Assembly (NCBI GenBank): GCA_934120265.1
Contig: CAKOTU010000001.1
Coordinates: 69,395-133,394 of the forward strand
Direction of reading: 5' to 3'
From: an uncultured Bacilli bacterium
Lineage (GTDB): Bacteria; Bacillota_I; Bacilli_A; RF39; UBA660
DNA: 64,000 bases
Shown here: in pieces, positions 2,614-62,931 of the stretch
Layout of the letters: every line of letters starts with the position of its first letter
Numbering within the stretch: the first letter of the stretch is position 1
The notes under the pieces: generated by a model
The model's input: only the letters and a program-made list of their open reading frames with translations
The model's database searches: none
Told to the model about the DNA's origin: nothing
Program-made: the position numbers and the translations under genes

Positions 2614-2661
2614 TTGTTTTTTTTTATTATTTTATGTGTTATAATGAAACTAGGTGATAGT

Positions 2662-3465
2662 ATGAAGAAACGTGGTTTTACTTTAGTTGAATTATTAGCA
2701 GTGTTAGTTTTAATAGCTGCTATATCCTTGGTTGTTTTTCCAAGTATAATAAATTATATCAACAATTCAAAAGGAGATATTAACGAAGTAACAAAACAAA
2801 TGATAATAACTAGTGCTAATCAGTATATGAGTGATAAATATCAACAAGAATTAAATGCATCTGTATGTTTTGATTTACAAACTTTAATTGATAACGAATA
2901 TTTAGAAAAATCAACACTTACAAATCAAGTTAGTAAAATAGATCCTAATACAACTTATATTCAAGCTGATTATGCTATTGATCCAGATTTAAAAACAGAG
3001 AAGTATATCATAAAAATTGTAACAAAATGTGTCACTTACGGTGATGTAAATTTAGATGGAAATGTAAATTCAACTGATTTTGATGCTTTAAAAACATATA
3101 TAAAAGGTGGTTCTAGTTTATCGGAAGAAGCTTTTGCAAATGCTGATGTAACTTTAGATGGAAAAGTTGATATCATTGACTTAGCTGTTATAAGAGCAAG
3201 ATTATCAAATACTTTAGCTGAATTTCCATTTAGTATAGATAGTGATAAGTTTAAATTTGGAGATTTGGATCTTGACGGAGAAGTTACAGAAAAAGATAGT
3301 GTAATGCTTGATAGATATATTGCTGAGTGGTTTGATTTTACATCATTACAAAAGATAGCCGCTGATCTTAACTTAGATGGAACGATAGATTCACAAGACT
3401 CATTAATCATGAGCAAATATTTGGCAAATTGGGCAGATTATAAGACTTTACCAAAACTTGATTAA
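2662..3465 (+). CDS. Prepilin-type N-terminal domain protein with two C-terminal dockerin-like modules
   Basis: MKKRG/FTLVELLAVLVLIAAI class III signal. Four DxNxDGxVNxxD-type Ca-binding repeats: DVNLDGNVNSTD, DVTLDGKVDIID, DLDLDGEVTEKD, DLNLDGTIDSQD. AGGTGA RBS precedes the ATG at 2662. Confidence 0.7.
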   Translation: MKKRGFTLVELLAVLVLIAAISLVVFPSIINYINNSKGDINEVTKQMIITSANQYMSDKYQQELNASVCFDLQTLIDNEYLEKSTLTNQVSKIDPNTTYIQADYAIDPDLKTEKYIIKIVTKCVTYGDVNLDGNVNSTDFDALKTYIKGGSSLSEEAFANADVTLDGKVDIIDLAVIRARLSNTLAEFPFSIDSDKFKFGDLDLDGEVTEKDSVMLDRYIAEWFDFTSLQKIAADLNLDGTIDSQDSLIMSKYLANWADYKTLPKLD

Positions 3466-4724: not shown

Positions 4725-5039
4725 ATGCAATACATAAAATATTTAATAATAATTGTGGTTATGTTAATTATAGCTTTCTCAATTACAAAGACAAAGAAAA
4801 AAGATTATAAAATTGAGGTTAATAAATTGGTTGACTATCTTGGTGGAAAGAAAAATATCATTGATTATGAATTTAATAAATCAAGATTTATTGTAAAGTT
4901 AGAAAATATTGATATGGTTAATAAAGAAGCAATTCAAAAGATGGGAGCTCAAGGTATTGTTGAAATAGATAATCAATTAAAGATAATACTAGGTCCTGAT
5001 GCTAAACAATTAAAAAAATATATAGATGACTTAAAGTGA
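4725..5039 (+). CDS. Membrane-anchored PTS EIIB-like domain protein lacking the catalytic Cys
   Basis: N-terminal TM, then LVDYLGGKKNIIDYEFNKSRFIVKL...GAQGIV...LKIILGP resembling the glucose-family EIIB fold. The HCxTRLR Cys position reads NKSRF. Start is ambiguous (4716, 4719 or 4725). Confidence 0.5.
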   Translation: MQYIKYLIIIVVMLIIAFSITKTKKKDYKIEVNKLVDYLGGKKNIIDYEFNKSRFIVKLENIDMVNKEAIQKMGAQGIVEIDNQLKIILGPDAKQLKKYIDDLK

Positions 5040-33810: not shown

Positions 33811-34004
33811 TTGACAGCAAAGAATACTAAATTGTATAATAAGAACAGTAAAGGTAGTGATAGTATGGTTAAAGAGATAAGTATAAAACTAGCTCAAAAC
33901 CCAACCTGGGGGGGGGGTATATTTAATCATACTATAATATTAAATAAAAAAGAAAACACAAAGCTTCTAGACTTTCGATAGTCTAGATTTCTTTGTGTTT
34001 TTTG
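33811..34004 (+). promoter_or_regulatory. Promoter plus structured leader RNA plus intrinsic terminator (copy A), candidate riboswitch/attenuator
   Basis: TTGACA (33811), 18-nt spacer, TATAAT (33835). 14-bp helix 33860-33873/33922-33935 encloses ~48 nt including G10 (33908-33917). Two-tier terminator 33953-34004. Near-identical copy at 53609-53799. Confidence 0.55.
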
Positions 34005-34133
34005 TGTACACCTTTATAAGAAGAGAGTTGTTTTAAAAATACATAAACGCATTAAAAATATGTATTATGACTAGATGTTTATAAGAATTGAAAAAGGGTA
34101 TAATTAAAATATAAGTAATGTAGGAGGAAAAAA

Positions 34134-35552
34134 ATGAAAAAGGAAGGATTTACTTTAATAGAATTATTAGCGGTAATAGTAGTATTAGCAATAATAGCAT
34201 TAATAGCAACACCAATAGTGATGAATACAATAAATAGTGTAAAGAAAGGTGCGGCTGAGAGAAGCGCAGAGAATTATATAAGGGCGGTAGGACTAGCCAT
34301 ATCTACTTCAGAAATTAATAAAAAACCAGTTTCTGATGGAAAATATTCTATTGGCAATGATGGCAATTTAATAGGAACAAATTTACCGGATGGTAAATTA
34401 GAAATAGATACAAATGGAAATAAGCCAACAGGAGGAACCATAGTAATAAAAGATGGACGAGTAACAACAGAATCAATAATATCAATTGGAGAATATGAGG
34501 TTTCATACAATGAAGAAATTAAAAGATATGAAGCAATAAAGTTAGAAACATACTCAATAAAGTATAATTTAACAAATGTGATTGGGGATAGTAGCAATGT
34601 AACAATCATATCAACAAAAGATGTTAAAACATTAAAGTTTAATCCTGCTTCGGGATACGTATTACCAGATAATGTGACAGTAAATGGGGCAACAAGTGTA
34701 TGGGATAAAGAAACAGGAACATTGATATTATCAAAAGCAACTGGAAATGTAACTGTTATTGTGAATGGTTCTAAAATATATTCAAATGGAGATGAAGTAT
34801 ATTTTAATGTAACAACAGGAACAAAGTGTTCATCATCCGATTACACGGAAACACAAAGTAATACAGGAGTAAAAGAAGGATGTATGAAGTTTTATGCTTT
34901 TAATGATGATGGAAAAGATAAAGTAAATCTTTTGTTAGACCATAATACAACTGCAACAGTAGCGTGGTTATCTAAATCAGATTATGTAGAAGCAGGAGGA
35001 ACAGAAAGTGATTATGGAAGTGAAGGAAAGAATGATAAAGGACCATTAACAACATTAAAGCAATTAAACAGTGATACAGCAACATGGAAAGGAACGGAAA
35101 CTCCTATAAATTATATAATGGACCAAACAGGCCAATCAAGTAATGCAAAATACACAATAGATTATAATGGGTATAAGGCAAGATTAATAACAACAAAGGA
35201 AGTAGCTCAAATTACAGGAAATACAACATGGGATGAGAAGACTGCCGGTAATAGATTTTACTTTGATACAAATTCAACTTCTTCAAGTGCAACATGTATA
35301 AGTGGAAATACAAGTGGATGTTCATATGGATGGCTTTACGATAGAACAAAAATGAATTGTAAGGCATATGGTTGTTTAAATAATTCAGATAAAGAAACTA
35401 ACGGCTATTGGGCTGCATCTTCACGTGCTGCAAATCCTTATCGAGCTTGGAATGTGTACTGCTTAGCTAGTATAAACTATAACACTGTTAGTAGCACAAG
35501 TACATATGGTGTTCGCCCGGTTATAGAAGTACTAAGATCAAAACTAAATTAA
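34134..35552 (+). CDS. Prepilin-type protein, shared N-terminal module plus Ig-like linker plus large Cys-rich C-terminal domain ending GVRPV
   Basis: MKKEG/FTLIELLAVIVVLAIIALIATPIV. Residues 1-135 are paralogous to 6408 and 53848. C-terminus has ARLITTKEVAQI...GYWAASS...AWNV...YGVRPVIEV. AGGAGG RBS. Confidence 0.75.
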   Translation: MKKEGFTLIELLAVIVVLAIIALIATPIVMNTINSVKKGAAERSAENYIRAVGLAISTSEINKKPVSDGKYSIGNDGNLIGTNLPDGKLEIDTNGNKPTGGTIVIKDGRVTTESIISIGEYEVSYNEEIKRYEAIKLETYSIKYNLTNVIGDSSNVTIISTKDVKTLKFNPASGYVLPDNVTVNGATSVWDKETGTLILSKATGNVTVIVNGSKIYSNGDEVYFNVTTGTKCSSSDYTETQSNTGVKEGCMKFYAFNDDGKDKVNLLLDHNTTATVAWLSKSDYVEAGGTESDYGSEGKNDKGPLTTLKQLNSDTATWKGTETPINYIMDQTGQSSNAKYTIDYNGYKARLITTKEVAQITGNTTWDEKTAGNRFYFDTNSTSSSATCISGNTSGCSYGWLYDRTKMNCKAYGCLNNSDKETNGYWAASSRAANPYRAWNVYCLASINYNTVSSTSTYGVRPVIEVLRSKLN

Positions 35553-53608: not shown

Positions 53609-53799
53609 TTGACAAAAATAAATATAAAACTGTATAATAAGAACAGTAAAGGTAGTGATAGTATGGTTAAAGATGTAAGTATAAACATAACTCAAAACCT
53701 AACCTGGGGGGGTTATTTAATCATACTATAGTATTAAACGAAAAAGAAAACACAAAGTTTCTAGACTTTAAAGTAGTCTAGATTTCTTTGTGTCTTTTG
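53609..53799 (+). promoter_or_regulatory. Promoter plus structured leader RNA plus terminator (copy B)
   Basis: TTGACA (53609), 18-nt spacer, TATAAT (53633). Helix 53658-53671/53716-53729. G7 at 53706-53712. Terminator 53747-53799. About 90% identical to copy A. Confidence 0.55.
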
Positions 53800-53847
53800 T
53801 TATGCCTTTATAAAAAAGTAAATCTAAAGAAAAAAGGAGGAAATGAT

Positions 53848-54714
53848 ATGAAAAAGAAAGGATTTACACTTATTGAATTACTAGCGGTGATAGTAGTACT
53901 AGCAATAATAGCTTTAATTGCAACACCAATAGTAATGAATACAATAAAAAGTGCGAAGAAAGGCGCAGCGGAAAGAAGTGCAGATAACTATATTGATGCA
54001 CTAGAAACAGTGGTTTCCACAAAACGTTTAGATGGAAATATCTTAGAAGGAGAATACCTAGTTCAATCGGATGGAAACTTATGTCCAACATCAGGATGTG
54101 GAGAAAATGATAAAGATAAAGTTGTTGTTGAAGTGAATGGAAATAAACCAATAAGAGGAACAATAGTAGTAAAAGATGGGCAAGTAACTACCGATTCAAA
54201 AATGACAGTAGGAAGTTATGAAATATCATATAATTCAACAACAAAGAAATATGAAGCAACAGAGAGCAGTAGTGCTTCGCCAACGGTAGTATATAGATAT
54301 TCAACAGATATAGTTAGCATAGGAGATACGATGAATGACTCGACAAAATATACAACTAATCCAAGCACATTAGGAAAAGTAGTATATTTAAAACATATAT
54401 TAGATAAAAATCATAAAGTAACAGAATCATACGCCTGCATTAATGAGAAGAGTATTGAAGCATGCATACAAGGTGGTAGTGCTGATTTTTATGGGTGGTC
54501 AGAAGAAGAAAGCAATTATAAAGGAAATGAGTTAATAATAAAAACGTTGCAAGATAAGGGCTTTAATTGTTATTTAAGTGCTTCAGATTCTTTTTGTACA
54601 GGTGATTCAGTTTATCTAGATGCAGGTCCAGGTGGACGTGTTGGCGTTGAAGGTGGAGGAAGTGAATACGGTAATTGTGAAGTTAATGAAGATGGTAGTT
54701 CTTCTTGCCGATAA
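53848..54714 (+). CDS. Prepilin-type protein, shared N-terminal module plus distinct Cys-rich C-terminal domain
   Basis: MKKKG/FTLIELLAVIVVLAIIALIATPIVMNTIKSAKKGAAERSADNYI is near-identical to 34134. The C-terminal ~150 aa is unrelated to the GVRPV-type domain. AGGAGG RBS. Confidence 0.75.
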   Translation: MKKKGFTLIELLAVIVVLAIIALIATPIVMNTIKSAKKGAAERSADNYIDALETVVSTKRLDGNILEGEYLVQSDGNLCPTSGCGENDKDKVVVEVNGNKPIRGTIVVKDGQVTTDSKMTVGSYEISYNSTTKKYEATESSSASPTVVYRYSTDIVSIGDTMNDSTKYTTNPSTLGKVVYLKHILDKNHKVTESYACINEKSIEACIQGGSADFYGWSEEESNYKGNELIIKTLQDKGFNCYLSASDSFCTGDSVYLDAGPGGRVGVEGGGSEYGNCEVNEDGSSSCR

Positions 54715-62201: not shown

Positions 62202-62744
62202 ATGGATGATATTTTAATGGAAACAGAAATGAAAATGGAAGCTTCTATTGATAGTATGGAAAAGAGATTAATTAATATTAGAGCAGGACGTGCTAACCCA
62301 GCTATTTTAGATGGTGTTATGGTATCTTATTATGGAGTTGATACACCTTTAAAACAACTTGCTACTATTTCTATTCCTGAGGCACGTCAACTTATGATTA
62401 AGCCATTTGATAGAACTACTTTGGGAGCTATTGAAAAAGGAATTTATGAAGCAAATGTTGGACTAACTCCAAATAATAATGGTGAAGTAATAATTTTAAA
62501 TATTCCTATTTTAACAGAAGATACAAGAAGAGAATATGTAAAGCAAGCTAAAACAATTTGTGAAGAATGCAAAATAGCGCTTCGTAATATTAGACAAGAT
62601 GCTAATAACGATATAAAAAAATTAGAAGTGCCTGAAGATGAAATAAAAAGTGGTCAAGAAGATGTTCAAGAATTAATTAATAAATATAATAAAATTGTTG
62701 ATGAAAAGTTTAAAATAAAAGAACAAGAATTAATGACTGTATAA
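62202..62744 (+). CDS. frr: Ribosome recycling factor
   Basis: IRAGRANPAILDGVMVSYYG...LATISIPEARQLMIKPFD. Confidence 0.95.
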   Translation: MDDILMETEMKMEASIDSMEKRLINIRAGRANPAILDGVMVSYYGVDTPLKQLATISIPEARQLMIKPFDRTTLGAIEKGIYEANVGLTPNNNGEVIILNIPILTEDTRREYVKQAKTICEECKIALRNIRQDANNDIKKLEVPEDEIKSGQEDVQELINKYNKIVDEKFKIKEQELMTV

Positions 62745-62749
62745 AAACG

Positions 62750-62931
62750 TTGAAGAAGATTAGTAAATTAAAAATATTTTAAAGAGAGTCTGTGGCCGGT
62801 GTGAACAGATAAATGTTTTGATTGAAGCTCCTTTGGAGTGTGATTAATAATCACCGGGAAACCGTTATCAAAATTAAGATCAATTAGGATGGTACCACGG
62901 TTTTTCGTTCCTAGAAAAACACGTGGTTTTT
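62750..62931 (+). promoter_or_regulatory. T-box leader (tRNA-sensing transcription attenuator)
   Basis: AGAGAG bulge (62782-88), distal loop GGCCGGUGUGA, T-box AATTAGGATGGTACCACGG (62882-62900). Antiterminator TAGGA/TCCTA with UGGUACC bulge. Competing terminator 62895-62926 plus T5. Confidence 0.8.

Follow-up and report, generated by a model that had tools for sequence, protein, structure and literature searches.

In classical attenuation, as in the enterobacterial trp and his leaders, whether an intrinsic terminator forms depends on where the ribosome stands on a leader ORF. Phase variation of surface-protein families through homopolymers lying in a promoter spacer or within the coding frame is known in Neisseria, in Campylobacter and in the vlp genes of Mycoplasma hyorhinis, and in Clostridioides difficile the leader terminator of cwpV is switched by DNA inversion. 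Poly-G phase variation in Campylobacter has been noted (PMC11955535), and the leader switch of flgB acts via Rho (PMC12360218). The closest described system is that of the pil1 and pil3 loci of Streptococcus gallolyticus, for which it was shown experimentally that GCAGA repeats within a leader ORF of about 38 amino acids set the position of the stop codon relative to a premature terminator (Danne et al. 2014, PLoS Pathog, PMC3894217). Short frames stop approximately 28-39 nt before this terminator and give low expression, while longer frames stop in or after it and give high expression, as the ribosome occludes the hairpin (PMC3894217). Beyond that report, the literature searched contained no description of a poly-G or leader-peptide version of such a switch, or of the pilin family of the lineage presented here. 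A paper on TANB77 pilins (PMC11680825) was considered as a precedent and set aside, as it concerns Tad-type pili.

The window analyzed here, a 64-kb stretch of DNA from an uncultured Bacilli bacterium, is Firmicute-type with a G+C content of 27.6%, includes genes for PolC and HrcA, and has a T-box leader at 62741-62915 (RF00230, 108.5 bits with a gathering score of 93). Two copies of a promoter-leader-terminator unit were present in the window, each located 5' of a prepilin-type gene, and are referred to as copy A (33811-34004) and copy B (53609-53799). The original prediction, that copy B represents a second copy of a discrete unit placed before a pilin paralog, was borne out. The two copies were approximately 90% identical (0.896 over the whole leader), with an alignment score of 245 compared with -24.5 +/- 12.6 for shuffled sequences. 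Identity was 91% in the leader (33842-33945 versus 53640-53739), 87% in the terminator part and 77% in the promoter part. With respect to the flanks, the 111 nt upstream of the copies were 68% identical, which is the background level (shuffles 65 +/- 4.5%), so that the flanks are unrelated and the conserved unit is indeed the leader and not the whole upstream region. The similarity was also not the edge of a uniform segmental duplication, as identity fell from 91% in the leader to 83% in the first 150 nt of the pilin coding sequence and to approximately 65-70% further into the gene. A core of 34 nt common to both copies was absent elsewhere in the window (0 expected by chance). The predicted 4-nt length difference at the G-run (G10+TATATTT in copy A, G7+TTATTT in copy B) was confirmed, as was the difference in the spacer from terminator to start codon (about 130 nt in copy A and 48 nt in copy B). 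Features of both copies are presented in Table 1. Taking this anatomy together with the frame conservation, run-length variation and link to prepilin-type genes described below, we consider it probable that each copy is a phase-variable leader-peptide transcription attenuator.

Table 1. Position of leader features and downstream genes for the two copies within the window.
Copy	Feature	Position	Strand	Details
A	Promoter	33811-33840	+	TTGACA, 18-nt spacer, TATAAT; 12/12 consensus match
A	Helix P1	33860-33935	+	33860-33872 pairs with 33923-33935; folding and RNAalifold
A	Leader ORF	33865-33981	+	Present G10 state, MVKEISIKLAQNPTWGGGIFNHTIILNKKENTKLLDFR then stop; TAG 33979-33981 in terminator hairpin; predicted ON
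A	Poly-G run	33908-33917	+	G10
A	Intrinsic terminator	33952-34003	+	Core hairpin 33957-33997, inner hairpin 33966-33987, U-tract 33998-34003
A	Downstream gene	34134-35552	+	Prepilin-type, 472 aa; PF07963 and TIGR02532 above cut-off
B	Promoter	53609-53638	+	TTGACA 53609-53614, 18-nt spacer, TATAAT 53633-53638; 12/12 consensus match
B	Putative transcription start	about 53645	+	
B	SD-like site and leader ATG	53648-53665	+	SD-like AAAGGTAGTGA, then ATG 53663-53665; read from sequence
B	Helix P1	53658-53729	+	53658-53670 ATAGTATGGTTAA (ATG inside) pairs with 53717-53729 TTAATCATACTAT; single-sequence folding and RNAalifold
B	Leader ORF	53663-53731	+	Present G7 state, MVKDVSINITQNLTWGGYLIIL then stop; predicted OFF
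B	Poly-G run	53706-53712	+	G7; proposed slipped-strand switch
B	Intrinsic terminator	53746-53799	+	Outer arms GAAAACACAAAG/CTTTGTGTCTTT, inner hairpin 53760-53782, T-rich tail
B	Downstream gene	53848-54714	+	Prepilin-type, 288 aa; PF07963 and TIGR02532 above cut-off

In both window copies the promoter is the sole promoter-like site on the plus strand before the pilin ATG, and the SD-like AAAGGTAGTGA with its ATG lies about 17 nt past the putative transcription start. The block AGTAAAGG..G.G...GTATGGTTAA, which comprises the SD-like site and ATG, was kept in all copies aligned. The pilin gene at 2656 has a similar ribosome-binding site and start (AGGTGATAGTATG). Compared with the GGAGG of the pilin genes, the SD-like site of the leader is weaker, a point against the attenuator. 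The run begins 68 nt past the -10 hexamer in each copy, and the two runs are the only G or C runs of six or more in the 64 kb (0.2 G-runs of seven or more expected).

A short ORF starting at the leader ATG had originally been discounted; as its frame differed between the two copies, the leader was taken to function as an RNA and not to encode a leader peptide. The wider family reversed this interpretation. In the segment from the ATG to the run, the frame of the ORF was open in all 31 distinct sequences, with 0 in-frame stops versus 75 and 46 in the other frames, even though no other stretch of the leader varies as much. The segment was 39, 40, 43, 52, 55 or 56 nt long, with differences which are mostly multiples of three; a few copies out of phase (L014, L022, L029 and L015) count against the attenuator. 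Entropy by codon position before the run was flat (0.72, 0.81 and 0.86), which indicates that the constraint is on the frame, which has to stay open, and not on the amino acids. Following the run, a single frame (frame X), which reads LFNHTIILNNKENTKFLD.., contained 2 stops in 29 distinct sequences (27 were without any) versus 98 and 37 in the alternative frames, and its openness spans a ATAATAATAAATAATAA-type linker with 3-nt indels. The stop of frame X falls 27-36 nt into the terminator, in its 5' arm/hairpin region, whereas the stops of frames Z and Y are located 14 nt and 25 nt upstream of the terminator, respectively. The present G7 ORF of copy B stops 14 nt before the A-tract at the terminator base and about 19 nt before the hairpin core. 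When run lengths were modelled, a three-step cycle was obtained in which the ORF of copy A is long with G4, G7 or G10 and that of copy B is long with G5, G8 or G11, the latter then ending at 53779 inside the terminator. The frame difference at the G-run is, as far as sequence can tell, the switch itself.

In the proposed mechanism, the strong sigma-70-type promoter would produce a transcript whose first 160 nt or so carry the SD-like site, the ATG and the short ORF across the poly-G, followed by the intrinsic terminator, with the prepilin-type gene beginning 48-130 nt further on. Slipped-strand replication, by adding or removing a G within populations, would reset the frame of ribosomes leaving the run. 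In frame X, a ribosome translating the leader ORF would cross the 5' arm of the terminator through ..LFNHTIILNNKENTKFLD.. and stop in the hairpin, so that the terminator would be blocked and transcription would read through into the pilin gene (ON). In frame Z or Y, the ribosome would stop before the terminator, which would then form and leave the gene silent (OFF). Copy A (G10) would be in the ON frame, and copy B (G7) in an OFF frame, one G too short for ON. With many units per genome (at least 15 in one), a random subset of the pilin-like surface proteins would be produced by each cell. Transcription-translation coupling is reportedly weak in Bacillus subtilis, and probably in other Firmicutes, which counts against this mechanism. 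The sequestration of the start codon by helix P1 also seems at odds with efficient translation of the leader; our guess is that P1 closes the leader to later ribosomes once the first has passed.

The run ranged from G5 to G10 across the family. In the 35 distinct complete run-bearing leaders, G5 was found in 3, G6, G7, G8 and G10 in 2 each and G9 in 24, with the frame state being X in 5, Y in 26 and Z in 4; these homopolymer lengths come from short-read metagenome assemblies in which many contigs break in the leader, and some lengths and junctions may be unreliable. Differences in length were also observed at a single locus. The copy A locus, recognized by an identical 472-aa pilin, carried G10 in the window and in L033 and G9 in L034, where the ORF stops at the position equivalent to 33935. 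At another locus, G8 was observed in one sample and G9 in a second (L037 and L075), and a further locus carried G8 in L063 and G9 in L011 and L085. Seven distinct leaders had no run, and five of these were continuous in frame X (e.g., MVNITSKELSEKLILGIYNHTIILNNKENTKFL) compared with 5 of the 35 run-bearing leaders (Fisher p = 0.005). Several samples contained one locked run-less copy, P0140, which was read on 23 contigs (29 index blocks). A profile of the long-frame peptides identified 141 database clusters of 34-44 aa, listed in public assemblies without a name or as "hypothetical" proteins. The junction held one, two or three Gly residues in 27, 41 and 21 of these clusters, respectively, as would result from runs differing by 3, and approximately 30 clusters had interrupted runs. 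A PF07963 gene was located about 70 nt downstream of both a divergent peptide (P0235) and the locked P0140.

The preponderance of G9 is more uniform than a freely hypermutable tract would give, and could reflect selection for the OFF state, recent gene conversion or assembler consensus. It also favours a reading in which the same attenuator operates in a non-heritable manner, with RNA polymerase slippage or ribosomal +1 frameshifting on a largely fixed G9 run bringing a fraction of ribosomes into the long frame and resulting in constant low or noisy expression. G9 is one nucleotide off the long frame in most copies, and transcriptional slippage is known to occur at homopolymers of about nine bases or longer. 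Against this, the run in the DNA itself differs in length at one locus between samples, and assemblies show in-frame states with one, two and three Gly codons; on this evidence a purely non-heritable system is unlikely. The two are not mutually exclusive, and heritable phase variation could be accompanied by slippage of RNA polymerase or by frameshifting of ribosomes on G9.

A scan of GTDB species genomes with the leader pattern identified 22 copies in only two genomes, with 15 in "Uncultured Tenericutes bacterium UMGS688" and 7 in a MAG designated "uncultured Bacilli bacterium"; many of these copies were at contig ends. A 5'-anchored scan of metagenome contigs, with a pattern which missed leaders of the window type (the AAGG-ATG gap is one nucleotide shorter in these), gave 60 further leader loci, from human-gut assemblies where identifiable, and additional copies were obtained from look-ups of pilin homologues. 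A prepilin-type gene was found downstream in 23/23 copies with enough sequence. The spacers from terminator to gene fell into two classes, 50-54 nt and 121-132 nt. The downstream proteins carry the N-terminal cleavage/methylation motif G-F-T-L-x-E followed by a hydrophobic helix, with PF07963 and TIGR02532 above cut-off, and solved pilins match them in the N-terminal helix only. The copy A and copy B pilins were 60% identical over the first 139 aa, and no record of the copy B pilin was returned by exact-protein look-up. No pilin assembly machinery (ATPase, platform protein or prepilin peptidase) was identified among the scanned window genes. Two other pilin genes of the window (2656 and 6408) have the prepilin methylation motif and lack the leader, and the upstream regions of the homologues P0007, P0012 and P0014 were too short for one; only some members of the pilin family are therefore preceded by the leader. 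In the product of the first of these window genes (2656-3465), which has no poly-G leader, the prepilin part is combined with two dockerin type I repeats (PF00404, E = 2e-25). The homologues P0048 and P0071 have the same prepilin and dockerin domain pair, and such a fusion is unusual. No blastn match to the leader was obtained in phage or plasmid collections, and a mobile-element origin was rejected for this reason.

The N-termini of the pilins were nearly identical across copies over the first 45 residues or so, an observation which favours a second alternative, namely that the conserved block is mainly a portable promoter and a homology tract which gene conversion among pilin cassettes keeps similar, or else a separate gene for a small protein, ended by its own terminator, with the pilin being expressed independently. 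In support of portability, different leader variable regions, which differ even in length, were found between samples next to the same chromosomal flank (L013 versus L080; L014 versus L048; L027 versus L044 versus L055), which suggests recombination or gene conversion of the leader/pilin cassette. The long spacer of copy A, moreover, contains a -10-like GGGTATAAT. The short-spacer class, however, which includes copy B, has no promoter-like site between terminator and pilin ATG, and the frame-specific avoidance of stops in the variable parts of the leader is beyond what gene conversion alone would give. A small-protein gene is further disfavoured by an N-terminal half of the peptide without constraint at the amino-acid level. 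This alternative is quite unlikely, and the phase-variable attenuator remains the preferred reading.

Contigs of many MAGs and metagenomes end within the leader (L011-L015, L030, L032, L038, L040, L045 and others). Assemblies of these genomes break repeatedly at the leader, which causes contig breaks in MAGs. One copy at a contig start (L010, 1-130) is missing about 20 nt including the ATG and the P1 5' arm, with the run, 3' arm and terminator kept, and is either a degenerate leader or an assembly artefact. In L074 (3466-4700) the leader is broken right after the first codons by an insert which encodes a 292-aa transposase-like ORF on the opposite strand, and the leaders of L049 and L092 are interrupted with the same junction sequence. 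In L051, L053 and L066 (e.g., L066 8326-8544) an unrelated ORF of 72 aa has been joined to the promoter, SD and first six codons of the leader, immediately past a prepilin-type gene of 662 aa; this fusion is probably a recombination remnant.

Several other pilin-family genes, in related genomes, have a run of G8-G9 in the promoter spacer (TTGACA-N9-G9-TATAAT; L006 and L007, both 2925-2970, L017 21-53 and L035 at about 4910-4945). It appears that poly-G is used by the same lineage at two different positions, in the leader ORF and in the classical promoter spacer. Within the copy A spacer, GGGTATAATTAAAAT (34096-34110) is similar to the L006 poly-G promoter except that only GGG is left of the run, and may be a decayed second promoter. 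The same long spacer (34009-34133) contains a hairpin, ATACAT..ATGTAT, at 34039-34065, with GTACAT..ATGTAC as its counterpart in L010, and its fold was no better than that of shuffles. An unrelated upstream gene in L006 (2880-2915) also ends in the motif of the inner terminator hairpin, TCTAGACT..AGTCTAGA, and this hairpin seems to be a common terminator module in the lineage.

RNA structure was assessed on an alignment of 37 distinct full leaders. The base pairs listed originally for the internal hairpins are present in the two window copies, as read from sequence. The compensatory change which had been cited in support of the first hairpin did not hold up when all 37 copies were compared, as its positions paired in 43-46% of cases versus 38-49% for slid controls, and the hairpin was absent from the RNAalifold structure, an outcome which had been named originally as refuting the proposal. 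Given that pairing is at background level, the compensatory change is no evidence of a conserved hairpin. The second proposed hairpin (ACCC/GGGU) is beyond the reach of covariation because one of its strands is the homopolymer. RNAalifold gave P1 and the terminator only. P1 is a helix of 13 bp formed by the start-codon region and the segment just 3' of the G-run, and was paired in 99.2% of cells over the 37 copies; five pairs vary on one side and stay paired, with no double change. In the 3' arm, all changes were pairing-compatible transitions, two of which change the amino acid (His to Tyr and Thr to Ile). P1 looks like a real RNA constraint, though not one proven by covariation. The terminator was 98.6-98.8% paired, with one C-G to U-A double change. 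Sequestration of the pilin SD by a conserved CCUUU past the terminator was considered and dropped, as the spacer folded no better than shuffles (z = +1.1, -0.6 and +0.2).

Some of these results favour a structured cis-regulatory RNA, either riboswitch-like or protein-binding, in which the helices control the terminator and the ORF is incidental. The leaders of copies A and B fold better than shuffles (z = -6.3 and -4.0, respectively), and both the retention of P1 and the pairing-compatible changes in its 3' arm point in the same direction. In contrast, no Rfam family (Rfam 15, including the c-di-GMP classes) was detected in either leader at gathering score, with nothing meaningful at E up to 10, and no antiterminator pairing between leader and terminator arms was seen by eye. 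Any ligand pocket would be expected in the interior which P1 encloses, and no other part of the leader varies as much; insertions of 9-13 nt are tolerated there. With this variable interior and the one-sided changes in P1, the leaders did not display a conserved core enclosed by covariation-supported helices. The pairing of hairpin 1 at background also counts against such an element, as does its failure to explain single-frame stop avoidance on each side of the run, the 3-nt indels and the locked long-frame copies, and we regard it as very unlikely. Finally, a C/U-rich small RNA might act in trans on the G-run, with regulation tuned by the length of the run. This proposal has a precedent in Helicobacter pylori tlpB and RepG and would suit a surface-related gene family whose 5' leader contains a G-run of variable length, but it makes no use of the ORF or of the terminator geometry, leaves the frame constraints unexplained and is scarcely credible.

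If the phase-variable attenuator is correct, it would be the second known example of phase variation by leader peptide and terminator, of independent origin and different design. It would mean that prevalent, small-genome uncultured gut commensals vary their surface in a stochastic and combinatorial manner, with consequences for IgA recognition, phage receptors and adhesion, and the 141 clusters of "hypothetical proteins" in public catalogues would be explained. As the ON/OFF state is predictable from sequence, metagenomic and metatranscriptomic reads are suited to a direct test of the model. A more extended picture is possible although doubtful, in which at least 15 scattered prepilin-type proteins of abundant uncultured human-gut Bacilli are switched independently by poly-G attenuators, P1 limits the decision to the first ribosome, and recombination between leader and pilin 5' regions reshuffles the cassettes; no combinatorial surface-variation strategy of this kind has been described among type IV pilin-like proteins or in this lineage.

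In relation to the known systems, the proposed mechanism shares with trp and his attenuation the principle that the position of a ribosome on a leader ORF decides the fate of an intrinsic terminator. Unlike those leaders, it has no regulatory codons and no alternative antiterminator hairpin, and its input would be a heritable change of frame rather than the supply of charged tRNA. As in Neisseria, Campylobacter and the vlp genes, a hypermutable homopolymer in an A+T-rich genome is associated with a multigene surface family which has a conserved 5' region and would switch independently. The runs of the window copies, however, lie neither between the -35 and -10 hexamers (as they do in L006, L007 and L017, with G9 in TTGACA-N18-TATAAT) nor in the structural gene, but in a separate upstream ORF which would act on a terminator. 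The likeness to cwpV and flgB is that of phase variation through transcription termination in the 5' leader of a Firmicute surface-structure gene; those switches depend on site-specific inversion and need no leader peptide, whereas no inverted repeats or recombinase are involved here.

The poly-G leader matches pil1/pil3 on every feature of the mechanism which can be examined in sequence. Both have a promoter, ribosome-binding site, ATG-initiated leader ORF, slippage-prone repeat and intrinsic terminator before a pilus gene, and the geometry is similar, in that the stops here lie 27-36 nt into the terminator or else precede it by 14 or 25 nt. The two are not similar in sequence, and the poly-G leader is a mechanistic analogue and not a homologue. 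The hosts also differ, being uncultured low-G+C gut bacteria and not S. gallolyticus. While pil1/pil3 use 13-22 units of a pentanucleotide repeat (GCAGA) with two of three frames long, the design here would rely on a mononucleotide G run with one of three frames long, and would control prepilin-type (type IV pilin-like) genes in place of sortase-assembled pilins. It would do so at many loci per genome, with at least 15 and at least 7 independent copies in the two genomes as compared with two for pil1/pil3, and with an additional conserved helix over the start codon.
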